DNA from: Solirubrobacterales bacterium
Lineage (GTDB): Bacteria > Actinomycetota > Thermoleophilia > Solirubrobacterales > JBBDJG01
DNA length: 64,000 bases
NCBI GenBank assembly: GCA_040880005.1
Contig: JBBDJG010000015.1
Coordinates: forward strand, 61,588-125,587
Direction of reading: 5' to 3'
The notes beneath the pieces were generated by a model, which searched no databases, was not told the origin of the DNA, and saw only the letters and a list, made by a program, of their open reading frames with translations. The position numbers and the translations under genes were made by a program. Below are positions 6,414-32,753 of this stretch, one piece after another. How positions within the stretch are numbered: position 1 is the first letter of the stretch; every line of letters begins with the position of its first letter.

Positions 6414-6444
6414 AGATGATGGATTTGATTCGAAACGAGAACAG

Positions 6445-17607: not shown

Positions 17608-19626
17608 ATGGCCGGTCGGAAACAATCGAGAGAACGACCAGAGGCGGGCGTCCTTCCGCCTGCAGCGCGAAGTCAGGGGCGCCCGGAGGAGCCCGAAGCC
17701 CGTAAACTGCGGCAGATGCTCCAGGCACTGCCATCCCGGCTGCCGTCGCCCCGCGACCCCGTCTGGCGGCACCGTCTGTTCCAACTCCTGGTCGATGCCG
17801 GGCTGGTTGCCCTCGCCTACTTCCTGGCCTACCTGCTGCGCTTCGACGAGGGAATTCCGCGTCGCTACGGCGAGCTCCTCGGGGCGACGATCGTGTTCGT
17901 CGTCGTGGGCAAGATCGCGATCTTCTACGCATTCGGCCTTTACGACAAGTGGTGGCGCTACGCTGGGCTGCGCGACTTCGAGTCGATCCTGAAGGCCTGT
18001 GTCGTCGCGAGCCTGGTGCTGGTCGGCGTTCTCTTTGTGTGGTCCCCGACCGACAACGAGCTGCCGAGGTCGGTCGCGGCGATGGATCTGTTGCTGACCA
18101 TCGCGCTGATCACCGGCGCGAGGTTCATCGTGCGGGCGGTGATCGAGCGGCCGCCGCGTGGCGCGGTGATACCGAAAGGCCAGGAGGTCCTGATCATCGG
18201 TGCCGGCGAGGCCGGTCAGCTGATCGTGCGTGAGATGCGACGCAGCCCCGAGCTGCGTCAGACGCCGATCGGTTTCGTTGACGACGATCCACGCAAACGG
18301 GGCATGCGTATTTTCGGGTTGAAGGTGCTCGGCACGACGCGCGATCTAGAGCGGCTGCTGGACGAGGTCGAGCCGGACGAGGTGATCATCGCGATCCCTT
18401 CCGCTCCGGGAATCGTGCGCGAGCGGGTTGTGCGCTCCTGCAGGGAAAGGGACATCCTCGTACGGACGCTCCCGGGTGTGTTCGAGTTGATCTCGGGCTC
18501 GGTCAACCTGATGCGGCAGGTGCGGGAGGTCCAGGTCGAGGACATCCTGGGACGCCAGCCGATCAAAGTCGAGATCGGCGAGACGGGCTCGTATTTGAGC
18601 GAGCGGACCGTGCTCGTAACGGGTGCGGGAGGCTCGATCGGGGCCGAGCTGTGCCGGCAGATCGCGCACGTCAAGCCGCGCCTTCTGGTGATGGTCGATC
18701 ACGCCGAGGACAACCTGTTCGAGATCGAGCGTGAGCTGCTCTCGGACCGGCACTTCACGGGATGCGAGTCGATCCTGGCCGACTGCAAGGACACCGAGCG
18801 CATGGTCGAGGTGATGCAGCGGTTCCACCCGGATGTGATCTTCCACGCGGCTGCCTACAAGCACGTTGCGCTGACCGAGGACAACCCGCTCGAGGCCGTG
18901 CGCAACAACACGATTGGCACCCAGGTGGTGGCGACGGCTGCGGCGGATGCCGGCGCCGATCTGTTCGTGCTCGTGTCCACCGACAAGGCCGTCAGGCCGA
19001 TCACGGCGCTGGGAGGTTCGAAGGCGATTGCCGAGTGGATCGTGGATGCATGCGAGTATCGCTACCCGGATACGTCTTTTTGCTCGGTGCGGTTCGGCAA
19101 CGTGCTCGGGTCGAGTGGCAGCGTTGTGCCGCTGTTCCGGCGCCAGATCGAGAAGGGGGGACCGGTGACGGTCACACACCCCGACATGGCGCGTTATTTC
19201 ATGACGATTCCGGAGGCGGTGCAGCTGATCATCCGGTCCGGGAAGCTGAGCACGGGAGGCGAGGTGTTCGTGCTCGAGATGGGTGAGCAGGTACGGATCA
19301 TCGATCTGGCTCGCAACATGATCCGGCTTTCGGGACAGGAGGTCGATCGGGACATCCGCATCGAGATCGTCGGGCCGCGCCCGGGTGAGAAGCTGCGCGA
19401 GGAGCTGTTCAACGAGGACGAGCAGCCGGTCGCGACCGAGGCCGACCGGATCGTGAAGGTCGAGCGCGAGTCGCTCGACCCCGACCGGGTCGACGCGGTG
19501 ATCGATCAGGTGGGGAGGCTTGTCGAGCACGGTGACGAGGCGTTCCTGGCGCAGCGCATCGCGGAGCTGGCGAGACTTCCGCGGCAACAGGCGGTCAAGG
19601 ACCTCAACGCGCTGATCGAACGCTGA
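17608..19626 (+). CDS. CapD/PglF/WbpM-type membrane-bound nucleotide-sugar 4,6-dehydratase
   Basis: Track ORF 16984..19626 trimmed (the upstream part is antisense to dedA). ATG 17608 or ATG 17716 are candidate starts. N-terminal TM helices, then VLIIGAGEAGQ and VLVTGAGGSIGAEL Rossmann motifs and SDR catalytic region. Confidence 0.85.
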   Translation: MAGRKQSRERPEAGVLPPAARSQGRPEEPEARKLRQMLQALPSRLPSPRDPVWRHRLFQLLVDAGLVALAYFLAYLLRFDEGIPRRYGELLGATIVFVVVGKIAIFYAFGLYDKWWRYAGLRDFESILKACVVASLVLVGVLFVWSPTDNELPRSVAAMDLLLTIALITGARFIVRAVIERPPRGAVIPKGQEVLIIGAGEAGQLIVREMRRSPELRQTPIGFVDDDPRKRGMRIFGLKVLGTTRDLERLLDEVEPDEVIIAIPSAPGIVRERVVRSCRERDILVRTLPGVFELISGSVNLMRQVREVQVEDILGRQPIKVEIGETGSYLSERTVLVTGAGGSIGAELCRQIAHVKPRLLVMVDHAEDNLFEIERELLSDRHFTGCESILADCKDTERMVEVMQRFHPDVIFHAAAYKHVALTEDNPLEAVRNNTIGTQVVATAAADAGADLFVLVSTDKAVRPITALGGSKAIAEWIVDACEYRYPDTSFCSVRFGNVLGSSGSVVPLFRRQIEKGGPVTVTHPDMARYFMTIPEAVQLIIRSGKLSTGGEVFVLEMGEQVRIIDLARNMIRLSGQEVDRDIRIEIVGPRPGEKLREELFNEDEQPVATEADRIVKVERESLDPDRVDAVIDQVGRLVEHGDEAFLAQRIAELARLPRQQAVKDLNALIER

Positions 19627-20807
19627 TGGCAGACGCACTGGTCGTTGCGAGCATCGTCGAGCGCCTGGGAGCGTACGTCGGCTTTCTTGCGCTGGTCGGA
19701 CTGGCGATTCTGGCGCTGCTCTACTTCTCGCAGGCACGCGACGTGCGACGGTTGCGCGAGTGGGCCGGCCGGGCCCCCGAGCGGGCGGCCGAGGCCGAGC
19801 AACGCGCGGCTCAGGTGCTCGCGCAGCCCCAGCAGCAGGCCGTTGTGCGCCGCGCTGCCGCGCCGGCCGCGACCGCCGGCGCGGCGTCGGCCACCGCCAC
19901 CGCGGCTTCCCCGAGTGCTCCTGCGACGGCGGCGGGGCGGGCGGCCGTCGCCGGCACCACGCAAACTGCCGCCGGCCCCGGCCGGGTCGCGGAGGGGGAG
20001 CAGGCCGCTCCGCCCGAGCAGGCTGAAACGGAGGGGGAGAGCCTGGAGCAGGAGGAACTGGAGGCTGAGCCCGGGCACGAGCTGGAGGAGCAAGGGCAGG
20101 AGCAAGGGCAGGAACAGGAGATCGTCCCAGAGGCGGACGGCCTCGACTACGAAGAGGTCGAGCAGGACGAGGAAGCGATCGTGGCGGCGACCGGTGGCAA
20201 CGCTCACGCGGTTACGGACCAGCCGACCGTTGCGCAGGAGTCGTTGCAACCGCTGGCGCCCGAGCACTACCTTCCGGGCACCGCGTATCGCGACGCGAGC
20301 CCGCGCAGGCGCAAGCCTCTGCGCCGTCGCTTGCGCAACATCTACATCCCACAGTTGCGCTACATCGTCGCGGGCGTTGCCGTCGCAGCATTGTTCGTGC
20401 TGGGCGTCGGATCGATCGCGGGCGTGATCGATATCGGCGGCGGGTCGGACGAGAGTGGCGGCAAGTCCAAGAAGGCACAGGGTCCCCAGCAGAGCGGTCA
20501 GGCCGCGAACGTCGATCCTTCGCAGGTGACGGTGGCCGTGCTCAACGGCACGACGGTGACCGGCCTCGCCTATCGCGTCAGCCAGGAGGCGGAATCGAGC
20601 GGCTTCACACTCGGAAACGTGACCAACGCCGCCACCACCGACCAGCAGGGGTCGGAGGTTCTGTACGCGCCCGGTCAGAAAGGTGCCGCGCGTGCGGTGG
20701 CGGATCGCCTCGGAATATCGACGGTCACTCCGGTCGATTCGGTCAATGCGGAGATCGCCGGGTCGGCCGACGCGGTCGTGCTGGTCGGGGCAGACCGAAG
20801 CGAGTGA
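19626..20807 (+). CDS. membrane protein with acidic/Ala-rich low-complexity linker and LytR_C-type C-terminal domain
   Basis: 393 aa. ATG overlaps the capD-like TGA by 1 nt. Two TM segments. E/Q/A-rich region includes a 12-nt tandem GAGCAAGGGCAG x2 at 20088-20111. C-terminal VTVAVLNGTTVTGLAYRV...VLVGADR matches the LytR C-terminal domain pattern. Confidence 0.7.
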   Translation: MADALVVASIVERLGAYVGFLALVGLAILALLYFSQARDVRRLREWAGRAPERAAEAEQRAAQVLAQPQQQAVVRRAAAPAATAGAASATATAASPSAPATAAGRAAVAGTTQTAAGPGRVAEGEQAAPPEQAETEGESLEQEELEAEPGHELEEQGQEQGQEQEIVPEADGLDYEEVEQDEEAIVAATGGNAHAVTDQPTVAQESLQPLAPEHYLPGTAYRDASPRRRKPLRRRLRNIYIPQLRYIVAGVAVAALFVLGVGSIAGVIDIGGGSDESGGKSKKAQGPQQSGQAANVDPSQVTVAVLNGTTVTGLAYRVSQEAESSGFTLGNVTNAATTDQQGSEVLYAPGQKGAARAVADRLGISTVTPVDSVNAEIAGSADAVVLVGADRSE

Positions 20808-22597
20808 CGAAGCGGCGACCGGGCGCGCTGGCGATCCAGTGCGTGTTCGCGGCGCTCGTGGTCGCCACGTTTGCCGCGTTCTTCGCGACGACGCGCCTCA
20901 AACGATCGCCGCCGGTCGTCCAGGAGCTGGCGGTCCGGCGCCACTTCTCCCCCAATGTCGACGGGCGCCTCGATGTCGCGCCGGTGCGGTTCAGGCTGCG
21001 ACGCAGCGATGACGTGACGGTCTTGATCGTCTCGCGGGATGGCGAGCAGGTTGCAACGCTGGCGGACGACGTGAGGTTGGGAAAGGGCGGGCATCGCTTC
21101 GTCTGGAACGGGCGCGCCGACGACGATCGGATTGCGCCCGACGGCGTCTATTACGCGCGAGTCGTGCTGCGACATCAGGGGCGCGTCGTCACCTCGCCGC
21201 GCAAGCTGTTTCTCGACACGACCGGTCCCAGCTCGATCGTCCGCTACGTTTCGCCCGACGCGATCACGCCGGGCGTGCCGGGCGCAGAGCGAGCGCGCGT
21301 GCGTTTCACCGGCCCGACCAGAATCGCGCCGACGCTACTGGTCTATCGCACGAACGAACGGCCGGGTGTTCGACCGCTCCTGGTCGCACGCCGCGCAGGC
21401 AAGAGGGACGATCCCAACCTGAGCTGGGACGGCCGCGTCGGGCTCGGCCGCGATACGCGACTCGCCCCCGCAGGCAACTACTTGATGGTGGTTCGGACCC
21501 GCGATGCCGCTGGCAACGACGGCCCGGAAGGTCCGCCACGCACGGCCGCTGAGGTGCGCGGAAATCCGGGCGTGGTCGTGCGCTACCTGGCCGCTGTCGC
21601 GCCTCGCGACCGTGTGAACGCGGGTGGCGTCGCCCGGTTCGCGGTGCTTGCGGCTGGGCGGCGCTACCGCTGGAGCGTGAGCAGAGTTGGCTCGAGCCGC
21701 CCGCAGAAGCGTGGCCGCTCGAGCGATCGTACACTGCGGGTTGGCGTCCCGCGGCGCTCTCGTACCGGCGCCTACCTGCTCGAGCTGACGCTCGACGAAC
21801 ACCGTTACGCGACGCCGTTTGCGGTGCAGGGAAGGGGCCGCGAGCCCGTGCTGGTGGTGTTGCCGGTGGCGAGCTGGATCGCGCGGGACCCGATCGATTC
21901 CGACGGCGACGGCTATTCGGACACGCTGCCCCAAAGTGACAGCGTGCCGGCATCGCGCCCGATCGCCGGATCCGGGCTGCCAGGCGGTTTCGAAACGTCG
22001 CTCGTGCCCGCGCTCGAGTTCCTGGACAGGGCGAAGCTGCGCTACGACATCGCCAGCGACCTCGATCGGCGTTTTGCCCGGCTGCTCGATCGCCACCCGG
22101 GTGTGCTCTATGCGGCGTCGCCGCGTGTCGAGACGACCACCGCGCTCGGTTCCCTGCGATCGCACATGCGCGCGGGCGGTCAGCTCGCATGGCTTGGCAC
22201 GGGAGGCTTTGTAACGGACGCTCGAGTCGAGAAGGACGCGTTCGTGCGGGTGCCCTCACCGCCGGGCGCAAACTCGTTCGGCGAGCGGCTGCGGATCGAC
22301 CCGGCCGGTGGCCCACTGTCCGTGGGCGCGAATCGCAACGGCCTGTTTGAGAACGTGCCATCTCCGTTCGGCCCGTTCGCGTCGCTCGAGCTGGCGCAAT
22401 CGGTGCCGAAAGGGGCGCAACGGACGGCGGCGGCCGGCCCGCCGGACCAGGGACCCGCGATCGTGTCCTACCGCATGGGCGCCGGTGGCTTCACCCGCGT
22501 CGGCGCGGCAGACTTCGGGCAGTCGCTGCGGGCGGACGGCGGCCTGCCGTCAAGCGCCCAGATAATGCGCAACCTATGGAACCTGCTGCGTTCCTAG
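20804..22597 (+). CDS. membrane-anchored hypothetical protein with FlgD-Ig-like N-terminal domain
   Basis: 597 aa. GTGA overlap with the upstream gene. TM helix CVFAALVVATFAAFFA. VTVLIVSRDGEQVATL...GHRFVWNGRADDDRIAPDGVYYARVVL resembles the FlgD Ig-like fold. The rest is unassigned. Confidence 0.6.
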   Translation: MTKRRPGALAIQCVFAALVVATFAAFFATTRLKRSPPVVQELAVRRHFSPNVDGRLDVAPVRFRLRRSDDVTVLIVSRDGEQVATLADDVRLGKGGHRFVWNGRADDDRIAPDGVYYARVVLRHQGRVVTSPRKLFLDTTGPSSIVRYVSPDAITPGVPGAERARVRFTGPTRIAPTLLVYRTNERPGVRPLLVARRAGKRDDPNLSWDGRVGLGRDTRLAPAGNYLMVVRTRDAAGNDGPEGPPRTAAEVRGNPGVVVRYLAAVAPRDRVNAGGVARFAVLAAGRRYRWSVSRVGSSRPQKRGRSSDRTLRVGVPRRSRTGAYLLELTLDEHRYATPFAVQGRGREPVLVVLPVASWIARDPIDSDGDGYSDTLPQSDSVPASRPIAGSGLPGGFETSLVPALEFLDRAKLRYDIASDLDRRFARLLDRHPGVLYAASPRVETTTALGSLRSHMRAGGQLAWLGTGGFVTDARVEKDAFVRVPSPPGANSFGERLRIDPAGGPLSVGANRNGLFENVPSPFGPFASLELAQSVPKGAQRTAAAGPPDQGPAIVSYRMGAGGFTRVGAADFGQSLRADGGLPSSAQIMRNLWNLLRS

Positions 22598-24183
22598 CAT
22601 CCGCGCTGCCGGAGCTCGGCGTGCTGGCCGCCGCTGCGTGCGCGGCGATGGCGCTCGTTGCGCGCGACGATCGATGTCGCTCCGAGGCGATGGTTGCCGC
22701 CCTCGTGCTGGCCGCGGTCGTGCTGGTCGGGCACATACACGACACCGAGCAGTTCCGCGACATCAGCGGTAGCCCCTCTCGCTTGCTTGCGGCGATCGTG
22801 ATCGGCACCGGCGCCATCGTCGCGCTGGCAACGCTGTTCACACGCAGCTCGCATGCGTTTGCGCTGATCGCGATCGCGGTGCTGCCGTTTCGCGTTCCGG
22901 TCGCCGCGGCGGGGACCACGGCGAATTTGCTGGTGCCCCTGTACTTCGTGATCGCGGGCGGTTGCGCAGCCAGCCTGTGGGCGCGCATGCATCGGTCGGG
23001 CGAAGTGCAACGGCGCGAGCGCAGCGGTTTGGAGATCGCACTCGCGGCGTTCATCGTCGTCTACACGCTCCAGGCGCTGTACTCGCGCGACTTCGACGTC
23101 GCACTCGAGCAGGTCGTGTTCTTCCTGGTGCCGTTCGCCGTCCTGTTCCGACTGCTCACGCAGGTGACTTGGACGCGCACGCTGATCGTGCGGTGCCTGG
23201 CGGTGCTGGTCGTGGAGGCGCTCGTGTTCAGCGCGATCGGGTTCTGGGAGTACGACCGCCGCGAGCTTTTCTGGAACCCGAAGGTGATCGCCTCCAACCA
23301 GTTCGACTCGTTCTTCCGCGTCAACTCGGTCTTCTGGGATCCGAACATCTACGGGCGCTTCCTCGTGCTGACGATGTTGGGGCTGGTCGCGCTGATGCTC
23401 TGGAGCGGCCGCACAAGAGTCGCAATCGGCACGGCCGCCGCCTTGGCGGTGCTTTGGGGCGGTCTCGTGCTGACGTTCTCCCAGTCGAGCTTTGTCGCAC
23501 TGCTTGCCGGCCTCGCGGTGCTTGCGGCGTTGCGATGGAACGTGCGCAAGACGCTGCTCGCAGCCGGCGCTGCCCTGGCCACCGGGCTCGTTTTCGTGCT
23601 GGCCTTCCAAGGTGCGCTCAACATCGAGCTTGGCAGCTCGGCGGGCGTCGACAAGGTCACGAGCGGCCGCGGCACCTTGATCAGTGGCGGGCTGTCGCTG
23701 TTCGGCGATCGGCCCGTGTGGGGCTACGGCTCGGGCGCGTTCGGCCGTGCCTACCGGCAGGAGCAGCACGGCAATCAGCAGCAGTCGGTCTCGGCCTCGC
23801 ACACGCTGCCAGTCACGGTCGCGGCGGAGCAGGGACTGATCGGGTTGGCCGCCTACGCGCTGGTGATGATCTGCGCGCTCTTTGCGTTACTCGGCAACGA
23901 TCGCCACCGCAGCGCGGTAAGCGAGCGCGGCCCGCCCCAACCCTCGGCAGAGCGCTCCGACGCGGATGCGGCGGAGCCAGTTGTTCTTCTGCCCGCCCGC
24001 GCCGCGATCGCGGCTGCGTTCGTCGCACTGCTCGTGCACACAATGGCCTACGCGGCGTTCCTGGAGGACCCGTTCGCGTGGGTGCTGATGGCCGCCGGGC
24101 TTTCACTCGCGGCACTCGCAGGACAGAAGAACCGCGAGGCCGAGCCATCCCTCCACAAACCCGTCATTCCGCTTGCGGAATGA
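22576..24183 (+). CDS. O-antigen ligase/polymerase family (Wzy_C) membrane protein
   Basis: 535 aa, more than 10 predicted TM helices. Central loop TFSQSSFVALLAGLAVL...GRGTLISGGLSLFGDRPVWGYGSGAF...SASHTLPVTVAAEQGLIG is typical of the family. Confidence 0.8.
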   Translation: MEPAAFLASALPELGVLAAAACAAMALVARDDRCRSEAMVAALVLAAVVLVGHIHDTEQFRDISGSPSRLLAAIVIGTGAIVALATLFTRSSHAFALIAIAVLPFRVPVAAAGTTANLLVPLYFVIAGGCAASLWARMHRSGEVQRRERSGLEIALAAFIVVYTLQALYSRDFDVALEQVVFFLVPFAVLFRLLTQVTWTRTLIVRCLAVLVVEALVFSAIGFWEYDRRELFWNPKVIASNQFDSFFRVNSVFWDPNIYGRFLVLTMLGLVALMLWSGRTRVAIGTAAALAVLWGGLVLTFSQSSFVALLAGLAVLAALRWNVRKTLLAAGAALATGLVFVLAFQGALNIELGSSAGVDKVTSGRGTLISGGLSLFGDRPVWGYGSGAFGRAYRQEQHGNQQQSVSASHTLPVTVAAEQGLIGLAAYALVMICALFALLGNDRHRSAVSERGPPQPSAERSDADAAEPVVLLPARAAIAAAFVALLVHTMAYAAFLEDPFAWVLMAAGLSLAALAGQKNREAEPSLHKPVIPLAE

Positions 24184-24210: not shown

Positions 24211-25743
24211 ATGTTTGAATACCTGAGACGCCTGGCAACGACCGGCGCGTCCTACAGCGCGTCGAGCGTCATATCGAAGCTGTTCGCGGTCGCGTTGCTG
24301 CCGGTCTATACGCGCCACCTGACGACGGCCGACTACGGAGCGGCCGAGGTGCTGCTCTCGGCGGCGGTCGCGTTCAGCATCCTGTTCAGGCTCGGAATCG
24401 TGGAAGCGCTGCTGCGTTACTACTATCGCTTCGACGAGCCTGAGCAGCGCGATCGCGTGGTGCGGACCTCGTTCGCGTTCCTGCTCGCCACCACGACCGT
24501 GGGTGCGTTGCTCATCGCCGCGTTCGCGGGCCCGCTGTCGGAGTTCCTGTTGCGCGATCGCGACACGCAGCTGATGCTGATCGCGGTCTTCGGTCTGTGG
24601 GTCTTCACGCTCTACGAGATGCTGATGGCGCTGTTCAGGCTCGACGAACGGGCTCGCGACTACTTCCTGGCGAGCATCGCGAACGTGGCGCTGACGATCG
24701 CCTTGACGGTGTGGCTGGTCGTGTTCCGCGACGAGGGTGCCAGAGGGCTGCTGTTGGGGAACTTCTGCGGCAGCGCCGTGATCGGGATCGCGTTGGGAGT
24801 AATCCACCGTCGCAGGCTCGCGCTGGTGCCCTCGGGTGACCTGCTGCGCCCGATGCTGCGCTTTGGCCTGCCGACGATGCCGGCCGAACTGTCGCTGTAC
24901 GCGCTCAACTTCGTCGATCGCATCGCGCTGACGCGCTACGTGGGGCTCGCCGAGGCCGGCCTGTACGCGCTGGCGGTCAAGTTCAGCCAGGTCGTGACCG
25001 TGTTCGCGCGGGCGTTCAATCTGGCCTGGCCGCCACTCGCCTACTCGATCGAAGACGACGAACGCGCAAGACGCGCCTACTCGCTGATCGTCACCTACTT
25101 CCTGCTGCTGGCCGCGACCGTGACGCTCGCCCTCTCGCTGGAGGCGCGCTGGGTCGTGCGCCTGCTTGCGGCACCCGAGTTCTTCGACGCCTGGAAGGCG
25201 ATCCCACTCGTCTCGACCGGCGTGACGCTGTACGCATTGTTCCTCGTGCTGTCGGTGACCGTGGGCAGGATCGGCCGCACCGAGTTCAACTTCCCCGTCA
25301 CCGCTGCTGCACTCGCCGTCAACGTTGCGCTGAACGTGGCGCTCGTGCCGTCCCACGGCATTGTCGGCGCCGGGTTGGCGCTGGTCGGCGCGTACGTGGT
25401 GATGCTCACGCTGATGTATGGGGTCACGCGCCGCCTTTTCCCGCTGCCGCTCGAATGGGGGCGGCTGGCCCGCATCGTCGTTCTCGCAGGCGCGCTGTAC
25501 GGGCTGGCCGAGGCGCTGTTGCCGACCGCCAGCGCTGTCGGACTGCTCGAGCGCGCCGCGCTCGTCCCCGCGTTCTGGGCGCTGCTCTACGTGAGCGGCT
25601 TCCTGCACGCGGTGGAAGTGGAGCGACTGCGGTCGCTCGGCGGGCGGCTGCGCGGGCGCGAGCCGGAGTTAGAGGCGGCGGAGGACCTCGAAGCCCTGAG
25701 CAGCAGCACGGACCTGATGGACGAGATGCACGATCCCCAGTAA
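24211..25743 (+). CDS. Wzx-type oligosaccharide flippase (MOP/polysaccharide biosynthesis protein family)
   Basis: 510 aa, ~14 TM helices. N-terminus ...ASYSASSVISKLFAVALLPVYTRHLTTADYGAAEV is typical of Wzx/MOP exporters. Confidence 0.8.
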   Translation: MFEYLRRLATTGASYSASSVISKLFAVALLPVYTRHLTTADYGAAEVLLSAAVAFSILFRLGIVEALLRYYYRFDEPEQRDRVVRTSFAFLLATTTVGALLIAAFAGPLSEFLLRDRDTQLMLIAVFGLWVFTLYEMLMALFRLDERARDYFLASIANVALTIALTVWLVVFRDEGARGLLLGNFCGSAVIGIALGVIHRRRLALVPSGDLLRPMLRFGLPTMPAELSLYALNFVDRIALTRYVGLAEAGLYALAVKFSQVVTVFARAFNLAWPPLAYSIEDDERARRAYSLIVTYFLLLAATVTLALSLEARWVVRLLAAPEFFDAWKAIPLVSTGVTLYALFLVLSVTVGRIGRTEFNFPVTAAALAVNVALNVALVPSHGIVGAGLALVGAYVVMLTLMYGVTRRLFPLPLEWGRLARIVVLAGALYGLAEALLPTASAVGLLERAALVPAFWALLYVSGFLHAVEVERLRSLGGRLRGREPELEAAEDLEALSSSTDLMDEMHDPQ

Positions 25744-26556
25744 CGCGACCAGCACGCTGCGCGCAACCGTTGCGGTGACCGACGGATAGTTGCCATCGGC
25801 GCAGCTCACGAGCAGGTCGATCGCGACGGCGAGCGTCAGCAGGTTGACGAAGCCGGGGAACACGAGCAGCTGCCCGAGGTTGGTGAAGCGCTTCCAGAGC
25901 ACGCCCGATCCCCGCGCCCCCTCGCGGCGCTGCTCGTACTCGGCCTCCAGATCGAGCTGCTCTGGGTCGCCGCCCTGGCGCGCCAGCACGGCGCGCAGGA
26001 ACCCGTCCGAGTCGCGCAGTCCGGGCCGGTCCCGGTAGAGGCCGAGCAGCACGTGGTCGCGCGCCGAGTAGGCGATGCGCACCGTGCTGAGGATCGCGAC
26101 CAGTGCGGCCGCCAGCAGCCACTCGTGACCGCTCTGATGGAATGCGCCGTAGGCCAGCGCCGCGATCGCGATCGCCGGCACGTAGTAGTGACCGATCCAA
26201 TCGAGATAGGCGCCGCCGGCGTTGGTCTCCCGCTGTTCGACCTGCGCCCGGTAACGCGCGACTTCCCCGTCCGAGTAGTCGATCACGAACGAGAGCTGGA
26301 GCAGGGCAAGCGCCGCAATCAGAGGCCAGAAGGAATTCCAGGCGAGCAGGAACGCGCCGCAGATGCCGAGCCCGACCCCCAGCATCGTGACCTGGTTGGC
26401 GCTGACGCGGGTGTGCAGCAACAGCCAGGTGAGGCGAATCGAGACCTTGCGCAGGATCACCGCGTAGGCGATGCGCAGGTTTCGCCTGGCCACGGGATCA
26501 CGCCCTTCTCCGCCGCAGATCCGCTCCAGCTCGCTGACTCCGGGCACTGCCATCAT
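25669..26556 (-). CDS. CDP-alcohol phosphotransferase family membrane protein (variant motif)
   Basis: Track ORF 25669..26772 trimmed to ATGATG at 26551-26556 (MMAVPGVSEL...). Motif DYSDGEVAR-x12-GAYLDWIGH equals DxxDGxxAR...GxxxDxxxH, so the last Asp of the canonical motif is His and the spacer is longer than usual. Confidence 0.75.
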   Translation of the reverse strand: MMAVPGVSELERICGGEGRDPVARRNLRIAYAVILRKVSIRLTWLLLHTRVSANQVTMLGVGLGICGAFLLAWNSFWPLIAALALLQLSFVIDYSDGEVARYRAQVEQRETNAGGAYLDWIGHYYVPAIAIAALAYGAFHQSGHEWLLAAALVAILSTVRIAYSARDHVLLGLYRDRPGLRDSDGFLRAVLARQGGDPEQLDLEAEYEQRREGARGSGVLWKRFTNLGQLLVFPGFVNLLTLAVAIDLLVSCADGNYPSVTATVARSVLVALLGIVHLVHQVRAAAQGFEVLRRL

Positions 26557-26585
26557 GTTGGGGCGGCCACCGTAGGTGGACGCTC

Positions 26586-27353
26586 GTGACTGAGGTGTTC
26601 GGCGAAGCCGACCATGCTTTAAGCCTATTGTTCCCTTCCGTGACGCAAATCCTTCCTGCCATATATCTGGCCGCCGGCGAAGGCAGACGACTGCGCCCAC
26701 TGACTGACGAGCAACCCAAGGCGATGCTCGAGATCGGCGGCGCCACGCTTGCCGAACGCGCACTGCGCGCACTGCGCGGGGCCGGTGTCGAGCGGGTCGT
26801 GGCCGTCACCGGGCACGCTCGTGAAAAGCTTGACGAGGTCGATGGCCTGCTCTCCGAGCAGGTCTTCAATCCGCACTTCGCCGATGCCAACAACGTCTAT
26901 TCGCTGTGGTGCGCACGCGACGTCGTGAGCGGCGGTTGCTACATCATCAACTCCGACGTGCTGTTCGAGCGGGCGATTGCGGACCGGCTCGTGAGCGCGT
27001 CCGGCAGCGCCGTGCTGTGCGCGTCAGATCACGGCGCCGATCACGAGTCGATGAAGGCCGTTTCGCGCGACGGTCGCCTGGTCCAGCTGTCGAAGGCGGC
27101 GCCGTCGGAGGGCAACCCCGAGTACATCGGCCTGACGCGCATCGATCCGAGCGAGGGCCCGCCGCTCGTGTCGATCCTGGAGCGGATCGTCGCCGACGAG
27201 CTGACCGACGTGTACTACGAAGACGCGCTCAACGACCTCGCGGCGGAGGCGGCCGTCGGCATCGTGCCGGTGGACGGTCTGGCGTGGATCGAGATCGACG
27301 ACACTGACGACCTCACGCGCGCCCGCGGGGAGATACTGGAGCGCGTCGGATGA
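26586..27353 (+). CDS. nucleotidyltransferase (NTP_transf_3 / cytidylyltransferase-like)
   Basis: 255 aa (alternative GTG start 26640). Signature AIYLAAGEGRRLRPLTDEQPKAMLEIGG. C-terminal WIEIDDTDDL. The fold family includes IPCT/LicC-type cytidylyltransferases. Confidence 0.75.
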   Translation: MTEVFGEADHALSLLFPSVTQILPAIYLAAGEGRRLRPLTDEQPKAMLEIGGATLAERALRALRGAGVERVVAVTGHAREKLDEVDGLLSEQVFNPHFADANNVYSLWCARDVVSGGCYIINSDVLFERAIADRLVSASGSAVLCASDHGADHESMKAVSRDGRLVQLSKAAPSEGNPEYIGLTRIDPSEGPPLVSILERIVADELTDVYYEDALNDLAAEAAVGIVPVDGLAWIEIDDTDDLTRARGEILERVG

Positions 27354-28438
27354 AGCCGCAGTCCGCGGCGGCATCGGCCGCAGTATCGCGCCGTTACATG
27401 GAGTTGCCCCGCTACCTGCGAGTGGTGACGGGTCAGGCGGAGCTGGCCGAGACCTTGACCGCGGTCGCTCGCGATCTCGGGTTTGCGAACCTTTGCGTGG
27501 TCAGCGGCGCGGGCGCCACCGCCGGAGTGGCCGAAGGCCTGGCGAGCGGGCTGGCGCAGCTCGCGGTCTCACACGTGCAAGCGACCGGCGACGGCCGCGA
27601 CGTAGCCGAGTCATTGGCAGCCGCGGACGAGCTGCGCGACGCCGACGTCGTCGTGGCGGTGGGTGGCGGCAAGACGATCGACGTGACCAAGCTCGCCTGC
27701 GAGTTGGCCGACGTCCCGGTGGTCACGGTCCCCACGCAGCTCACTGCCGATGGCATCGCCTCGCCGATCAGCGTCGTTCGGGACTCGGCCGGTCACACCC
27801 AGAGCATGCGCGCGAGGATGCCGATCGCGGTGCTGGCCGACCTGGACGTGATCGCGGCCTCGCCGGTGGCGAGCATGCGTGCCGGGCTCGGCGACCTGGT
27901 CGCCAACCCATGCGCAATCCGCGACTGGCGATTGGCGGCAAACGCGGATCGCGAGTCGGTCGACGACTTCGCCGCGCTGCTTGCGCAGACCGCGACCGAC
28001 CTGGTGTACGCGACCGGCGTCGCGCAGCTGGGGGCCGAACAGCCGGATCGCGACTTCCTCAGGCGTTTGTTGGAGGGGCTGGTATTGAGCGGGCTGGCGA
28101 TGGAAATCGCGGGGTCGTCGCGCCCCTGCTCGGGATCGGAGCACCTGTTCAGCCATGCGCTCGATCGGCTGCGGCCGGGAACCGCGGCGCACGGCGAGCA
28201 GGTCGCGTTCGGTTCGCTGCTGGCGGCGAGGCTGCACGGCGCCGACTGGCGCAGCCTTCAATCCTTCTTGCGCTCGGCCGGCATGGAGCGCGCCGCGAGC
28301 GGCTTCGGGCTTTCGGAGAATGAACTGATCGAGGTGCTCGAAGTGGCGCCCTCGACTCGCCCCGACCGCTACACGGTGCTCGACGAGGTCGATGAGCCCG
28401 AGCTGGGCGCCGCCGTGCGAGACGTTCTCACTGCTTAG
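27350..28438 (+). CDS. sn-glycerol-1-phosphate dehydrogenase-like (EgsA/AraM branch of the Fe/Zn alcohol dehydrogenase superfamily)
   Basis: 362 aa. ATGA overlap with the nucleotidyltransferase gene. Motifs VVAVGGGKTIDVTK, VPTQLTADGIASP, GSEHLFSHALD, HGEQVAFGS (Asp/His/His metal ligands as in G1P dehydrogenases). Confidence 0.7.
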   Translation: MKPQSAAASAAVSRRYMELPRYLRVVTGQAELAETLTAVARDLGFANLCVVSGAGATAGVAEGLASGLAQLAVSHVQATGDGRDVAESLAAADELRDADVVVAVGGGKTIDVTKLACELADVPVVTVPTQLTADGIASPISVVRDSAGHTQSMRARMPIAVLADLDVIAASPVASMRAGLGDLVANPCAIRDWRLAANADRESVDDFAALLAQTATDLVYATGVAQLGAEQPDRDFLRRLLEGLVLSGLAMEIAGSSRPCSGSEHLFSHALDRLRPGTAAHGEQVAFGSLLAARLHGADWRSLQSFLRSAGMERAASGFGLSENELIEVLEVAPSTRPDRYTVLDEVDEPELGAAVRDVLTA

Positions 28439-28447
28439 ACGACCGGG

Positions 28448-28909
28448 CTACTCGCCGATCACCTTGATCACCAGCCGCTTGTTGCGCCGCCCGTCGAACT
28501 CGGCGTAGAAGACCTCCTGCCAGGGGCCGAGGTCGAGCTTACCCTCGGTGATCGGCAGCACGACCTGCTGGTGCACGAGCAGGTTCTTGAAGTGGGCGTC
28601 ACCGTTGTCCTCGCCGCCGCGGTGGTGGCGGTAGTCGCCGCCTTCCGGCAGTAGTGCCTCGGCGACTGGGTTGGCGGCGGGCTTCCAGCTCGGCGGCGCC
28701 AGCTTGTCGAGCCATTCGAGCGTGTCCTCGAGGATTCCGGGCTCGTTGTCGTTGACCCACACGCCGGCGGTGATGTGCATCGCCGACACGAGCACCATCC
28801 CTTCCGCCACTTCTGAATCGTCAACGGCGCCTTGCACGTCGTCCGTGATGTGTACGAACTCACGCCGCTCCTTCGTCTTGAACGTGTGGTGAACGGTGTG
28901 TGATTTCAA
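28448..28909 (-). CDS. yjbQ: YjbQ/UPF0047-family protein (secondary thiamine-phosphate synthase type)
   Basis: 153 aa. TTG start overlapping the GT2 stop (TTGA). FVHITDDV...[20 protein letters not shown]...DAHFKNLL pattern of the family. Confidence 0.8.
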
Positions 28910-29883
28910 GATTCGGCCTCCTGTTGTTCCTGTCGTTGCTCTCGTAATCCTTCGCCACTGCCTGGAAACAGCGAGTAGCGTGCGTGCATCGCGTAGCGGC
29001 TCGCGTCTTTGCCCGGCAACACCAGCGCGCCCACTGCTCGCAGCGAGTACGCCCAGGCGCTGAGGACGCGCACGACCAGCGCCGCCGGTTGCCCGTGGTG
29101 CTTCTTCATATACAGATCGCGGTTGCGCGAGAACTCGACGATTCGCCGCCGCGCCGATGCGCCGTGTGAGAGCTGCTCGCGGTGGTAGATCCTTGCCGCA
29201 GGGACGAACAGCGTCTTCCAGCCGGCGTCGTTCGCCCGCTTCTGCCAGTCGACCTCATCCGAATAGACGAAGAACGCCGGGTCCATCGGGCCGACCTCGT
29301 CGAAGGCGCGCTTGCGCACGAGCATGCCGGCGGACTGCACCCAGTCAACCGTGCGTGTTTCGTTCCCCCGGCTCTGCACGGTGTGGCGGTTGTGCAGCAG
29401 CAGCGCGCCGGCGAGAGCGGTGCGCACGCCGGGAAACCGCCACGCGCACGGCTGGGGAGTTCCTTCCGCGTTCAGCAACCGTGCGCCTGCCACCGCCGCA
29501 GCGGGCTCGGACTCGAGCGCCGCGACGAGCGCGTCGGCAGCACCGGGTGTCAGCTCGGAGTCCTCGTTCAAGAGCAGGCAGAAATCGCCACGAGCACGAC
29601 TCATGAGGTCGGAATCGTTCTCGGCCTTGCCGCGGCGCGTGCTCAACTCGATCAGCTCAACTTGCGGGAAGGCCTCGCGGACTGCGCCGGCCGATCCGTC
29701 GCGTGAGGCGTTGTCGAGCACGAGGATCTCGTGTGGGCGCGACGGGGGGTTGGCGGCTATCGACCGCAGGCAGGCGAGCAGCAGATCGCGGCCGTCGGTG
29801 TTGACTATGCAGACCGATATCTGTGGCGGGTCGGGCACGGCGTCATGTTGACGATAATGCGCTGCGATGCGCGTCACGGTCAT
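28906..29883 (-). CDS. family 2 glycosyltransferase
   Basis: 325 aa from ATG 29883. In-frame GTG 29838 gives the more typical short N-terminus (V)[15 protein letters not shown]. Motifs [10 protein letters not shown] and LLNEDSE (DxD-like). Confidence 0.8.
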
Positions 29884-30970
29884 CGACCCACCTGCCTACA
29901 CGCCTCCCTACGACCACTGCCTGTGCGAGGCGCTGGCGGCGCGAGGGCTGGAAGTGGAACTGGCCACCAGCCGCTTCCGTTATGCGGCGACGCCACGGCC
30001 GCTCGGCTACACGCGCACGGAGTGCTTCTATCGCCGCGGCGGCAGCAGCTCGACCCTCAAGGCCTTGCAGCATCCGCTCGACATGGCGCGGCTTGCTCGC
30101 CATGCGCGCGGCTCGATCGCGCACTTCCAGTGGCTGCCGATCCCGTCGCTGGACCGCCGGCTCGTGCGCAGGTTCGAACGGCCGCGTGTCTTGACCGCGC
30201 ACGACATCCTTCCCCGCGAGGCCGGCGCGCGACGGCGCAACGCCGCTCGCAGGCTGTTCGATGAGATGGACGCGGTCGTCGTGCACTCGCGTTCGGGTCG
30301 CGAGCGACTGGTGGACGACCTCGGTGTCGATCCGGCGCTCGTGCACGTGATCCCGCATGGATCGTTCGAGCATCTCGCCAGGGGAAACGCGACGCAGCCG
30401 ATCGACCCCGTCGCCGGCGACCTCGACGGGCACGAGGTGGTGCTGTTTTTCGGCTTGATCCGCCCCTACAAGGGACTCGACGTCCTGATCGAGGCGTTCG
30501 GCCAGCTACCCGGCGATGCGGTCCTGCTCGTGGCCGGGATGCCGCGCGTTCCGATCGAGCCGCTGCGCCGACGGGTGGAAGAGCTCGGCCTCACCGATCG
30601 AGTCCGCTTCGTGCCCCGCTTCATCTCCGACCCGGAGATCCCGGCCTACTTCGAGCGCGCCGACGTGGTTGCGCTGCCGTATCGCGAGACGGAGCAGTCC
30701 GGCGTCCTGTTCACGGCGCTGGCGTTCGGCAAGCCTGTCGTCGCGAGCGACATCGGAGGCTTCAGCGAGGTCGGCCGCGACCACGCAGCGATACGGCTGG
30801 TGGCGCCGGATGACCCCGGCGCGCTCGCCGGCGCGCTCGGCGAGCTGTTGCGCGACGAAGATCAGCGCGAGCGCTTGTCCCAGGCCGCCCGCGCAGCCGC
30901 CAGCGGACCGTACTCGTGGGCCCGGGCCGCGGAGTTGACCGAGGCCCTCTACCGCGGGCTGCTGCCATGA
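29867..30970 (+). CDS. family 4 (GT-B) glycosyltransferase
   Basis: 367 aa. [15 protein letters not shown]...; C-terminal half VVLFFGLIRPYKGLD...ADVVALPYRETEQSGVLFTALAFGKPVVASDIGG (EX7E-type region). Confidence 0.85.
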   Translation: MRVTVIDPPAYTPPYDHCLCEALAARGLEVELATSRFRYAATPRPLGYTRTECFYRRGGSSSTLKALQHPLDMARLARHARGSIAHFQWLPIPSLDRRLVRRFERPRVLTAHDILPREAGARRRNAARRLFDEMDAVVVHSRSGRERLVDDLGVDPALVHVIPHGSFEHLARGNATQPIDPVAGDLDGHEVVLFFGLIRPYKGLDVLIEAFGQLPGDAVLLVAGMPRVPIEPLRRRVEELGLTDRVRFVPRFISDPEIPAYFERADVVALPYRETEQSGVLFTALAFGKPVVASDIGGFSEVGRDHAAIRLVAPDDPGALAGALGELLRDEDQRERLSQAARAAASGPYSWARAAELTEALYRGLLP

Positions 30971-32106
30971 CGGCGCTTGCAGTCGTCTTCTGGGTATCGG
31001 CGGCCGCGATTGTCTATACGCACGCCGGTTACCCGCTGTTGCTGCGCGTGATCGGCCGTCGCGCCCGGCACAGGAAACCCGCCGAAAGCGATCTGCCCAG
31101 CGTCACGCTGATCGTCGCCGCCCACGACGAGCAGACGGTGATCGAGCGCAAGCTGCGCAACTCGCTGGAGCTGGACTATCCGCGCGGGCTGCTCGAAGTG
31201 ATCGTCGCCTCCGACGGCTCCGGCGATCGCACGGTCGAGATCGCGCGCTCGCTGGCCGCCGGCGACGATCGCGTGAAGGTGCTCGACCTCGAGCGAGCCG
31301 GCAAGGTGCGCGCCCAAGACGTGGCCGCCGACGTCGCGACGGGCGACGTGCTCGCGTTCTCCGACGCCAACGCGTACTGGGAGGCCGACGCGCTGCGCAA
31401 GTTGGTCGCGCCGTTCGCGGACGAAGAGGTCGGCTACGTTTGCGGCGAGCTGCGCTACGAGTCGGTCGACGGGTCCAATCAGGAGGGCGCGTACTGGCGC
31501 TTCGAGACCGCCAACCGCGACTACGAAAGCCGCCTGCATTCGGTCACGGCCGGCAACGGCGCGATCTATGCGGTCAGGGATGAGGCCTACCTGCGCCTCG
31601 ACCCTCGCACCAGCCACGACCTCTCGTTGCCCTTCAACCTCGTCAAGCGCGGCTGGCTGGCGCTGTCGGAGCCGTCGGCGGTCGCGGTCGAGCGGCCGCT
31701 CGCCACCAACGAGGGCGAGTTCGCGCGCAAGCGGCGCATGATGAGCCACGCTTGGCCGGCGATCCTAGGCGGCGGGATGCTCGACCCGCGTGGCTACGGA
31801 CCCGTTTACGCATTCGAGATCTTCTCCCACCGGGCACTGCGTTACGCGACGCCCTTTCTGCACGTGATCGCGTTCGTCGCGAACTTGGCGCTCGTCGGGG
31901 AGGGCTTGGTGTACGTCGTAACGCTGGCGATCCAACTCGCATTCGTGATGGCCGCGATAGCCGGACGGCTCACGCGCGGCCGGCCGCGCGTGCTCGCGCT
32001 GTGCCAGTACTACTTGCTGACGACCGCTTCGATCGCGGCCGGCCTTTGGGATTGGCTGCGGCGCGGAACGCCCACCACCTGGGAGAAGGCGCAGGGCCGC
32101 GCGTGA
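30967..32106 (+). CDS. family 2 glycosyltransferase (membrane-associated, synthase-like)
   Basis: Track ORF 30916..32106 trimmed to ATG 30967 (ATGA overlap with the GT4 stop). PSVTLIVAAHDEQ, VASDGSGDRT, AFSDANA motifs. N- and C-terminal TM helices. Confidence 0.85.
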   Translation: MTALAVVFWVSAAAIVYTHAGYPLLLRVIGRRARHRKPAESDLPSVTLIVAAHDEQTVIERKLRNSLELDYPRGLLEVIVASDGSGDRTVEIARSLAAGDDRVKVLDLERAGKVRAQDVAADVATGDVLAFSDANAYWEADALRKLVAPFADEEVGYVCGELRYESVDGSNQEGAYWRFETANRDYESRLHSVTAGNGAIYAVRDEAYLRLDPRTSHDLSLPFNLVKRGWLALSEPSAVAVERPLATNEGEFARKRRMMSHAWPAILGGGMLDPRGYGPVYAFEIFSHRALRYATPFLHVIAFVANLALVGEGLVYVVTLAIQLAFVMAAIAGRLTRGRPRVLALCQYYLLTTASIAAGLWDWLRRGTPTTWEKAQGRA

Positions 32107-32753
32107 AGCCGCAAGCAAGGCCGGCCGTGCCTGCCGATCCGAGGCCGCGGGTCATCCGCGCGATCAAGCGCGCGCTCGACCTCGTCGGGGCCGCGGTCCT
32201 GCTCGTGCTCAGCTCGCCGCTGCTTGCGCTCGCGTGTGGGGCGATCCGGATCGGGTCGCGCGGCTCGCCGATCTACCGGCAGCGCCGTGTCGGTAAGCGC
32301 GGCCGCGACTTCGAGCTGCTGAAGCTGCGCACGATGGTCGAGGGTGCCGAGGGCAGCGGCAAGGGGCTCGCGGTTGACGAAGACGATCCGCGCATCACGC
32401 GCATCGGTGCGCTGCTGCGCCGCTTCTCGCTCGACGAGCTGCCCAACCTGTTGAACGTCGTGCGTGGTGAGATGAGCCTGGTCGGGCCACGCCCGACCGT
32501 GCGGGTTCAGGTCGATCAGTACACGCAGCGCCAGCTCGGCCGGCTCGCGGTCGAGCCCGGCATCAGCGGCTGGGCGCAGGTGCAGGGCCGGGCGTCCTTA
32601 CCGTGGCACGAGCGCATCGAGTTGGACCTTTGGTACGTGGAGAACTGGTCGCTGCGGCTCGACGCGCGCATCGCGTGGATGACGCTGCGGCTGCTGATCA
32701 GCGGCAGGGGACTCTACCGCGGCTCGACTGGCGGCTGGCGCCCGCCGGAATAG
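32103..32753 (+). CDS. initiating phosphoglycosyl transferase (small bacterial sugar transferase, PglC/WbaP C-domain type)
   Basis: Track ORF 31752..32753 trimmed to GTG 32103 (GTGA overlap with the GT2 stop). KRALDLVGAAVLLVLSSPLL re-entrant helix. FELLKLRTM, DELPNLLNVVRGEMSLVGPRP signature. Confidence 0.85.
   Translation: MKPQARPAVPADPRPRVIRAIKRALDLVGAAVLLVLSSPLLALACGAIRIGSRGSPIYRQRRVGKRGRDFELLKLRTMVEGAEGSGKGLAVDEDDPRITRIGALLRRFSLDELPNLLNVVRGEMSLVGPRPTVRVQVDQYTQRQLGRLAVEPGISGWAQVQGRASLPWHERIELDLWYVENWSLRLDARIAWMTLRLLISGRGLYRGSTGGWRPPE

Follow-up and report, generated by a model that had tools for sequence, protein, structure and literature searches.

The window analysed here, a 64-kb stretch of contig JBBDJG010000015.1 from a Solirubrobacterales bacterium, carries within a surface-glycan locus a cassette of three genes, encoding a homologue of sn-glycerol-1-phosphate dehydrogenase (G1PDH), a nucleotidyltransferase resembling LicC and PntC, and a membrane protein of the CDP-alcohol phosphotransferase type (CDP, cytidine diphosphate) in which a histidine stands in place of the last aspartate of the family motif. 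Together the three proteins would convert dihydroxyacetone phosphate (DHAP) into sn-glycerol-1-phosphate (G1P), activate G1P as CDP-sn-1-glycerol and place glycerophosphate on a lipid-linked glycan. To this mechanism in full we assign a probability of about 0.5. The parts of the trio belong to known superfamilies; their combination and the route are undescribed in searchable literature. A natural CDP-sn-1-glycerol pathway, a G1P cytidylyltransferase and this gene combination were not found in the literature searchable as full text, which leaves out most subscription journals, and this agrees with the sequence-only reading of the window that the present analysis follows up, which knew of no characterised system of the kind.

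The three enzymes of the cassette

The family membership of the three proteins and the conservation of their motifs are direct results of sequence comparison. The dehydrogenase gene (27350–28438, plus strand) encodes a protein of 362 amino acids, with GGGKTIDVTK, TADGIASP, GSEHLFSHALD and HGEQVAFGS all present in its translation. From these motifs the sequence-only reading had placed the protein in the EgsA/AraM branch and not among ordinary iron-dependent alcohol dehydrogenases (Fe-ADHs), and every comparison made here points the same way. The NCBIfam profile for NAD(P)-dependent glycerol-1-phosphate dehydrogenase (NF002022) matches residues 13–347 with 267.5 bits (E 1.5e-79), against 82.4 bits on the sister profile for glycerol dehydrogenase (GldA) and 16.5 bits on that for AroB; with NF002022, 241.9 bits are obtained for the Nocardiopsis orthologue. 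In Pfam the EgsA/AraM family corresponds to PF13685. Among proteins in the PDB, the four best distinct matches are G1PDHs or a structural-genomics protein of the G1PDH branch (2e-45 to 9e-37), while glycerol dehydrogenases match from 1e-16 or weaker and dehydroquinate synthase at about 1e-3. The stretch SSRPCSGSEHLFSHALD is near-identical to the same stretch in the G1PDHs of M. jannaschii, where it reads SSRPASGSEHLFSHALD, and of P. calidifontis, and the window and M. jannaschii enzymes have SSRPxSGSEHLFSHALD in common. TADGIASP, GSEH and HGEQ align to the same residues in the structures 5fb3, 3ce9, 4rgq and 9h4x and in the Nocardiopsis orthologue. The Asp of DG[IF][AS]SP, the His of SGxEH and the His of HGE are what we take to be the metal ligands of the family.

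A neighbour-joining tree (240 columns) was built from the window protein, two Solirubrobacterales orthologues, proteins of Nocardiopsis, Thermobifida and Actinoallomurus, four solved G1PDHs, GldA, AroB and an Fe-ADH. The window dehydrogenase, the actinobacterial proteins and the four crystallised G1PDHs form one clade with 100% bootstrap, and Escherichia coli GldA, E. coli AroB and the classical Fe-ADH fall outside it. Clustering with glycerol dehydrogenase or dehydroquinate synthase, which would have contradicted the sequence-only reading, is thus not seen, and profile scores, PDB matches and tree together rule out either identity. Within the clade, the actinobacterial G1PDHs that belong to trios, including the window enzyme, group together (83% bootstrap). 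Whether the archaeal structures (130–159 bits to the window protein) or the 414-amino-acid G1PDH 9h4x (75 bits) are the closer relative is a split that the tree leaves unresolved (36% bootstrap).

The dehydrogenase gene is preceded by a nucleotidyltransferase gene (26640–27353, plus strand), and by the coordinates of the reading frames the stop of the latter and the ATG at 27350 overlap by 4 nt (ATGA). The open reading frame (ORF) extends from 26586 to 27353, but translation probably begins with the GTG at 26640 (alternatively with the TTG at 26628) and not at 26586, the orthologues being 236–237 amino acids long; the product is then one of about 237 residues. It carries LAAGEGRRLRPLT...PKAML, a form of the nucleotide-binding signature G-x-G-x-R-L-x-P-x-T...PK, and is matched by the Pfam families NTP_transf_3 (E 8e-15) and NTP_transferase. 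Signature, Pfam match and overlap bear out the earlier description of an NTP_transf_3-type enzyme ATGA-coupled to the dehydrogenase. In the PDB, full-length matches are found to LicC, the CTP:phosphocholine cytidylyltransferase (CTP, cytidine triphosphate; 1jyk, 4e-19, residues 6–233), to the PntC-type domain of a Treponema fusion protein (6pd1, 1e-16, residues 5–229) and, more weakly, to IPCT (2xme, 8.5e-6, residues 3–229). GlmU, GalU, RmlA and the mannose-1-phosphate enzymes align over the N-terminal 50–110 residues only; an exception is the dual sugar-1-phosphate nucleotidylyltransferase 5z09, which matches residues 7–218 with an E value of only 1.5e-4. Since the full-length matches are to LicC, PntC and IPCT and those to sugar-1-phosphate enzymes are mostly N-terminal, the comparison argues for a small-phospho-alcohol cytidylyltransferase and against a sugar-1-phosphate enzyme, a candidate we reject because its sole near-full-length match is weak. 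The window protein and the Nocardiopsis orthologue of the same trio share 34% identity. Its proposed activity would be that of a CTP:sn-glycerol-1-phosphate cytidylyltransferase, as suggested by the ATGA-coupled G1PDH gene and by the pattern, described below, in which a neighbouring gene sets the head group.

The third gene (25669–26556, minus strand) is divergent from the other two and encodes a membrane protein of 295 amino acids with the motif DYSDGEVAR-x13-GAYLDWIGH. Its residues D93xxD96GxxAR...G115xxxD119xxxH123 depart from the canonical signature D-x2-D-G-x2-A-R-x(7-12)-G-x3-D-x3-D in two respects, the last Asp being His123 and the spacer comprising 13 residues; D93, D96, G97, A100, R101, G115 and D119 are retained. 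The sequence-only reading had recognised the family and the histidine, and had counted the spacer as 12 residues. The Pfam match to CDP-OH_P_transf (PF01066) is marginal (E 5e-5, 24.2 bits against a gathering cut-off of 22). Canonical PgsA, PssA or PIPS identity is rejected (17–39 bits against cut-offs of 107–180). The best NCBIfam matches are to the DIPPS half of IPCT/DIPPS and to archaetidylinositol-phosphate synthase, all far below cut-off, and the best NCBIfam match of the nucleotidyltransferase is to the cytidylyltransferase (IPCT) half of the same bifunctional enzyme. The two proteins score 53 and 70 bits against the IPCT/DIPPS cut-off of 580. The pairing of IPCT and DIPPS chemistry named in the sequence-only reading stands as regards the best NCBIfam matches of both enzymes, and gives way to LicC/PntC as the closer comparison for the nucleotidyltransferase, as judged from its structural matches.

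The best solved relative of the transferase is AF2299 (4o6m, E 9e-11; DIPPS, E 3e-4). In the alignment, DYSDGEVAR...GAYLDWIGH lies over DGCDGEIAR...GAWLDGVLD of AF2299, and H123 corresponds to the last motif Asp of both AF2299 and DIPPS. That aspartate is the proposed base or Mg2+ ligand of CDP-alcohol phosphotransferases, and the crystal of AF2299 contains CDP-glycerol (PMC8633023). A weak AlphaFold2 model (predicted local distance difference test, pLDDT, 63), built from an alignment of 11 close homologues, is all-helical, with helices consistent with six transmembrane (TM) segments; the top 17 PDB matches of this model in Foldseek are all CDP-alcohol phosphotransferases, with TM-scores of about 0.42 and a best E value of 1.7e-3.

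The histidine is no local oddity but marks a large family, as yet without a name, with members in bacteria and archaea. An exhaustive search of 1.84 billion representative sequences returned 2382 relatives with E < 1e-3, 325 of them with E < 1e-10; the close Solirubrobacterales family falls into a single 50% cluster. H123 is invariant in the 11 close homologues. It is conserved at 90% or more in a set of 24 sequences whose identity falls as low as 23%, a set in which strict invariance is confined to D93, D96, G97 and R101, and it is found in all 120 Nocardiopsaceae-type homologues and in 99 of the 107 distant representatives that bear the motif (about 93%), one of which has Asp. Because His at the position of the last Asp is the family norm, the window transferase is classed by its sequence as a variant branch of the CDP-alcohol phosphotransferases and not as a canonical member. 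Conservation of the histidine across the family together with the other motif residues indicates an active site that is probably functional, with one residue altered, and not decay.

Genomic context and conservation

Gene order and co-conservation are likewise observed directly. The transferase gene and the nucleotidyltransferase–dehydrogenase pair are separated by a short divergent intergenic region (26557–26639), which presumably holds a shared promoter; a consensus scan of 25500–29000 yielded no sigma-70-like site or terminator. Around the trio, about 49 ORFs of the window were scanned against Pfam, some small ORFs being left out. The flanks are as the sequence-only reading had described them, by Pfam a Wzx flippase and a possible ligase on one side and three glycosyltransferases (GTs) with an initiating phosphoglycosyl transferase (PGT) on the other, to which a YjbQ/UPF0047 gene between the dehydrogenase and the first GT is now added. 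Upstream lie a Wzy_C-family polymerase or ligase (22576–24183, plus strand; E 1e-15, 58 bits) and a Wzx-type flippase (24211–25743, plus strand; Polysacc_synt E 7e-20, 72 bits). Downstream, the YjbQ/UPF0047 gene (28448–28909, minus strand) is followed by a GT2 gene (28906–29883, minus strand), a GT4 gene (29867–30970, plus strand), a second GT2 gene (30916–32106, plus strand) and the Bac_transf PGT (31752–32753, plus strand; 199 bits). A PGT, a GT2, GT4 and GT2 set, a flippase of the MOP family and a Wzy_C protein in one cluster constitute a Wzx/Wzy-dependent glycan locus. The G+C content is 64–70% across the whole window and no compositional break marks the glycan locus.

Further upstream, the locus encodes a PglF-like UDP-sugar 4,6-dehydratase (Polysacc_synt_2 E 5e-108; PglF-like 361 bits) inside ORF 16984–19626 on the plus strand, its start at ~17700 being approximate and taken from the VTT/DedA gene at 16849–17517 and from orthologue lengths. 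Two plus-strand genes follow, for a LytR_C-domain protein (19626–20807; LytR_C E 7e-13) and a DMFA2_C/FlgD_ig protein (20804–22597; DMFA2_C E 1e-11). Both are kept in every Solirubrobacterales copy of the locus, and the former consists of the LytR_C domain only, without an LCP catalytic domain. The YjbQ/UPF0047 gene, of the 'secondary thiamine-phosphate synthase' family, shares 4 nt with the end of the GT2 gene, and in 8/8 Solirubrobacterales loci it adjoins the G1PDH gene; it may have a part in making the glycan. At 2193–9359 on the plus strand, upstream of the whole locus, stands a conserved actinobacterial cell-wall and division cluster with PP2C, FtsW/RodA, a class B penicillin-binding protein, a PknB-type kinase with four PASTA domains and the D-Ala-D-Ala ligase Ddl.

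In each of the eight Solirubrobacterales loci examined (L001–L008) the trio has the same place, with a transferase identity of 57–79%. The sequence-only reading had made co-conservation and linkage to wzx one of its tests, and a lack of co-conservation, which would have spoken against it, is not what is seen. In two relatives with long contigs (L001 and L002; transferase identity 66–69%) the whole locus is syntenic, in the shared order DegT, PglF-like dehydratase, LytR_C protein, DMFA2_C/FlgD_ig protein, Wzy_C, Wzx, transferase, nucleotidyltransferase and G1PDH, then YjbQ, GT2, GT4, GT2 and Bac_transf PGT; the other Solirubrobacterales loci, eight in all, keep this order. The DegT aminotransferase that stands beside the PglF-like dehydratase in the relatives was not detected by tblastn in the window (~16000–17700); because of this difference, the first sugar of the glycan may differ in the window strain. 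At 33038–34291 (minus strand) the window has an AAA_14/DUF4143 ATPase where L001 and L002 carry an Amidase_2/Rv3811_N protein.

Beyond this order, a scan that took a single genome from each species finds the trio colinear, with all genes on the same strand, in nine loci, six of Nocardiopsis and three of Actinoallomurus. The trio is likewise colinear in Thermobifida fusca. The Nocardiopsis proteins are 39% (G1PDH), 34% (nucleotidyltransferase) and, over the motif region, 38% (transferase) identical to those of the window, in an operon with the order ABC ATPase, unknown, DUF5941, nucleotidyltransferase, G1PDH, transferase and GT2. The literature searchable as full text contains no mention of DUF5941. 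In T. fusca (L083/L084, 213–20106) the genes are LCP, GT2, GDPD, IspD-like, TagG-type permease, TagH-type ATPase, unknown and DUF5941, then the trio (nucleotidyltransferase, G1PDH, transferase), GT2, UDP-glucose dehydrogenase, GT4 and a second LCP; the locus thus includes two LCP-LytR_C ligases, two proteins without a Pfam match and an IspD-like cytidylyltransferase. A survey of synteny across 929 Streptomyces genomes, published in 2026, reports a conserved orphan region 'associated with teichoic acid biosynthesis' with genes for a protein of the CDP-alcohol phosphatidyltransferase family, a GT2, tagG, tagH, araM and a sugar-phosphate nucleotidyltransferase (PMC13118837). This is the gene set of Nocardiopsis and Thermobifida; it comes with TagGH, whereas the window has Wzx/Wzy. 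The survey deals with synteny only and mentions neither function, stereochemistry nor the His variant (PMC13118837). In Intrasporangiaceae (L025 of Terrabacter tumescens, 8058–10780; also L050, L064 and L076), a 639-amino-acid fusion of a canonical CDP-OH_P_transf domain and DUF5941 lies directly upstream of a His-variant transferase and downstream of an ABC ATPase, and neither a G1PDH nor a LicC-like gene was detected near it.

Across the wider His-variant family, 29 of 74 loci have a LicC-like nucleotidyltransferase no further than 3 kb from the transferase, several of the others being contigs that end early, and the gene next to the pair varies. A Dehalococcoidales locus (L015, 5548–12844) has a phosphoenolpyruvate (PEP) mutase, at the equivalog cut-off and fused to a nucleotidyltransferase domain, a split phosphonopyruvate decarboxylase (Ppd) and a classical Fe-ADH, then nucleotidyltransferase, transferase, GT4 and methyltransferase. 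In a Methanosarcinales locus (L021, 52–3671) the neighbour is a 2-aminoethylphosphonate aminotransferase (PhnW/AepZ), well above the equivalog cut-off, and in a WOR-3 locus (L009, 339–6978) the pair is found with a B12-radical SAM enzyme, a Wzy_C protein and a PMT_2 glycosyltransferase. When 132 ORFs that neighbour the transferase in 21 diverse loci are sorted by Pfam, the count is 18 nucleotidyltransferases, about 10 class I methyltransferases, 6 GT4, 5 Wzx, 5 GT2, 5 sugar epimerases or dehydratases, 5 radical SAM proteins and 3 myo-inositol-1-phosphate synthases, the last being a further kind of head-group gene beside the pair. The simplest reading is a modular system, in which a neighbouring gene makes the head group, the LicC-like enzyme activates it as a CMP or CDP derivative and the His-variant enzyme transfers it to a membrane-associated acceptor, often within polysaccharide loci; the head-group gene of the window is then the G1PDH gene. 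The loci with phosphonate clusters suggest an undescribed class of transferases for the phosphonate decoration of surfaces. A phosphonate pathway in the window itself is rejected, PEP mutase and decarboxylase being absent among the ORFs scanned and the dehydrogenase being of the G1PDH and not the PhpC type.

The proposed pathway and its competitors

The substrates, stereochemistry, nucleotide, acceptor and topology of the pathway are deduced from homology and gene order and may be set out as follows. The dehydrogenase would reduce DHAP to G1P, the archaeal-type enantiomer, and the translationally coupled LicC/PntC-like enzyme would use CTP to form CDP-glycerol of sn-1 configuration. The divergent His-variant membrane enzyme would then move glycerophosphate to a hydroxyl of a membrane-bound acceptor at the cytoplasmic face, with release of cytidine monophosphate. 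The likeliest acceptor would be the oligosaccharide linked to undecaprenyl diphosphate (Und-PP) that the PGT and the three GTs of the locus are predicted to assemble. Wzx would then flip this glycerophosphate-bearing oligosaccharide, and the Wzy_C protein would polymerise or ligate it, the product being a teichoic-acid-like surface glycan that carries glycerophosphate. An active site facing the cytoplasm is established for solved members of the family and probably applies to the window enzyme; because such a site lies at the membrane surface on the cytoplasmic side, an Und-PP-linked repeat unit would fit as acceptor before flipping by Wzx.

Several points weigh against this pathway. We know of no CDP-alcohol phosphotransferase that has a lipid-linked glycan as acceptor. 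The G1PDH profile score of 267.5 bits falls short of the NCBI equivalog cut-off of 413 bits, so that the window dehydrogenase is, as far as profiles can place it, a divergent bacterial branch of G1PDH and not an automatic equivalog. The nucleotidyltransferases of G1PDH and of phosphonate contexts are equally similar to the window enzyme (98–117 bits in phmmer for both), and its substrate therefore cannot be read from sequence. In canonical enzymes, replacement of the last aspartate abolishes or lowers activity, as in D66N of MjPSS (PMC8633023). The AlphaFold2 model of the transferase is of low confidence, with a predicted template modelling score (pTM) of 0.64 beside its pLDDT of 63; it serves to recover the family in Foldseek but not to judge the geometry of the active site. 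Finally, the Wzy_C protein is the only one in the locus, and none of the ORFs scanned encodes an LCP catalytic domain.

A serious rival, although on balance an unlikely one, is a pathway in which the donor is the same (G1P to CDP-sn-1-glycerol) and the acceptor is a lipid, either diacylglycerol or a glycolipid made by the GT4, giving a product like phosphatidylglycerol (PG) or a glycerophospho-glycolipid. This lipid could serve as membrane anchor or primer of the glycan, like a lipoteichoic acid (LTA) or a lipoglycan, and in loci with an ABC transporter the enzyme, acting repeatedly, could even be a poly(glycerophosphate) polymerase. Lipids or small phosphodiesters are the products of every characterised CDP-alcohol phosphotransferase, and in 14 of 74 loci the transferase has a GT4 gene no more than 3 kb away, directly downstream for example in L015, L016 and L030. 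T. fusca, which makes poly(glycerophosphate) LTA (PMC3196553), has no TagF-type polymerase gene called within 20 kb of its trio, and actinobacteria are without a clear LtaS orthologue (PMC3196553). It is for loci of the TagGH type without TagF that a lipid acceptor has most force. In the window, by contrast, the locus is of the Wzx/Wzy type and has a polyprenol-phosphate PGT of its own, the cassette is flanked by Wzx and the GTs, and no sequence feature points to a lipid acceptor; the argument that the natural head group of PG, sn-1'-glycerophosphate, would suit such a product is a theoretical one.

Less likely still is another head group, whether because the dehydrogenase reduces a different ketone or because the nucleotidyltransferase uses inositol-1-phosphate, phosphocholine, phosphoethanolamine or a phosphonate supplied from elsewhere. 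In the pneumococcal Gtp1/Gtp2/Gtp3 route to CDP-2-glycerol, dihydroxyacetone is reduced to glycerol. The G1PDH match under the equivalog cut-off would be in keeping with such a change, as would the best matches of the nucleotidyltransferase (IPCT in NCBIfam, LicC and PntC in the PDB) and the wider His-variant family, which clearly serves several head groups. It is opposed by the place of the dehydrogenase in the fully supported G1PDH clade and its agreement with the M. jannaschii enzyme over SSRPxSGSEHLFSHALD, by the translational coupling of dehydrogenase and nucleotidyltransferase and their co-conservation across orders, and by the absence of a kinase, PEP mutase, inositol-1-phosphate synthase or choline kinase among the window ORFs scanned.

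Improbable, too, is a soluble phosphodiester as compatible solute, of the diglycerol-phosphate or glycerophospho-inositol type that Archaeoglobus accumulates, with the position in a glycan locus incidental; IPCT/DIPPS makes di-myo-inositol phosphate in this manner. The best NCBIfam matches of the two enzymes are indeed the two halves of IPCT/DIPPS, and the closest structure, AF2299, comes from Archaeoglobus. The scores of 53 and 70 bits are nevertheless far below the cut-off of 580, the trio has a fixed place in envelope-glycopolymer loci of two kinds, with Wzx/Wzy assembly in Solirubrobacterales and with TagGH/LCP in Thermobifida, no gene for a phosphatase that would act on a solute-phosphate intermediate adjoins it, and the source organisms are, by the origin of their metagenomes, mesophilic soil bacteria. 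Least credible of all is a transferase that is catalytically dead or a scaffold or sensor, with CDP-glycerol used by another transferase: the last motif Asp is required for full activity in canonical enzymes and the Pfam score is marginal, but the near-universal histidine is retained with D93, D96, G97, R101 and D119, and the pairing with an activating nucleotidyltransferase persists in more than a third of the loci (29/74 within 3 kb).

Known systems and significance

The closest parallel to the proposed pathway is the Wzx/Wzy-type teichoic acid of pneumococcus. There, repeat units are built on undecaprenyl diphosphate from CDP-polyols and an amino sugar derived from a 4,6-dehydratase, flipped by a Wzx-type and polymerised by a Wzy-type protein. 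The pneumococcal transferases differ in being LicD- or TagF-like, and the polyol is ribitol-5-phosphate or glycerol-2-phosphate. Pneumococcal capsule loci have glycerol-phosphate activation genes of their own, gtp1-3 (Bentley et al. 2006, PMC1391919). The LicC/LicD system for phosphocholine (S. pneumoniae) and the PntC system for aminoethylphosphonate (Treponema) share the same plan, in which a LicC-fold enzyme activates a small phospho- or phosphono-head group with CTP before its transfer to a surface glycan. The window differs in that its transferase is a membrane CDP-alcohol phosphotransferase variant and not of the LicD type, and in that the head-group gene is the G1PDH gene. Rice et al. 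(2019, PMC6697681) discuss LicD-like transferases and not a partner of the CDP-alcohol type ('phosphatidyltransferase', 0 occurrences).

IPCT/DIPPS (AF0263, 4mnd) and AF2299 (4o6m/4q7c) of Archaeoglobus fulgidus pair, like the window, a cytidylyltransferase with a CDP-alcohol phosphotransferase, which has six TM segments in A. fulgidus. In the window the genes are separate and divergent and not fused, the last Asp is His, the context is a glycan locus and not solute synthesis (Inos-1-P_synth was not found among the ORFs scanned), and the low-confidence model predicts a cytoplasmic insertion of ~55 residues between TM4 and TM5. EgsA and the AraM/PcrB system of Bacillus subtilis have a dehydrogenase of the same family, with presumably the same reaction from DHAP and NAD(P)H to G1P, and AraM is evidence that bacteria can make G1P (PMC4244643). 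Known G1P sinks are ether lipids, made via GGGPS in archaea and PcrB in Bacillus, whereas the window neighbours are a cytidylyltransferase and a CDP-alcohol transferase. The TagD/TagF pathway of wall teichoic acid and the TagF-like capsule polymerases also add glycerophosphate from CDP-glycerol to a lipid-linked polymer at the cytoplasmic face, and the T. fusca trio lies beside a TagG/TagH-type exporter; yet they use sn-glycerol-3-phosphate, and all three enzyme families differ. As the sequence-only reading held, these families are missing here: TagD-type PF01467 (CTP_transf_like) and TagB/TagF-type PF04464 (Glyphos_transf) do not occur among the window ORFs scanned or the called genes of L001, L002 and the T. 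fusca locus, and Pfam detects no TagD, TagF, LicD, LtaS, PEP mutase or inositol-1-phosphate synthase domain among the former.

Glycerophosphate in envelope polymers is known to come from two routes, the LtaS route taking sn-1-glycerophosphate from phosphatidylglycerol and the TagD/TagF route using CDP-sn-3-glycerol. It is tempting, if decidedly tentative, to see in the cassette a third route beside these two. In this broader proposal, CDP-sn-1-glycerol would be a natural bacterial metabolite, the His-variant enzymes would constitute a novel class of membrane transferases of glycerophosphate, phosphonate or inositol phosphate, or even polymerases, and the cassette would be the missing machinery for LtaS-free poly(glycerophosphate) lipoteichoic or teichoic acid in Thermobifida, Nocardiopsis and Streptomyces. 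The stereochemistry of glycerophosphate sets wall teichoic acids apart from lipoteichoic acids and decides their recognition by hydrolases and antibodies. The pathway would be a natural source of CDP-sn-1-glycerol, which appears in the searchable literature only as an artificial substrate made enzymatically. Phylogenies have long included actinobacterial G1PDHs (PMC5059525), the sole known bacterial use of G1P being the ether lipid of AraM/PcrB (PMC4244643), and the cassette would give these homologues a function. T. fusca and Streptomyces make poly(glycerophosphate) LTA without a clear LtaS orthologue, by a pathway that is unresolved (PMC3196553). Because the trio sits in a TagGH/LCP/GDPD locus of a species with reported LTA, it is a concrete and testable LTA candidate in a cultivable organism. 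Beyond the actinobacteria, the His-variant transferases, which number 325 or more representative clusters (E < 1e-10), seem to join CMP-activated head groups, phosphonates included, to surfaces in many bacterial and archaeal phyla.

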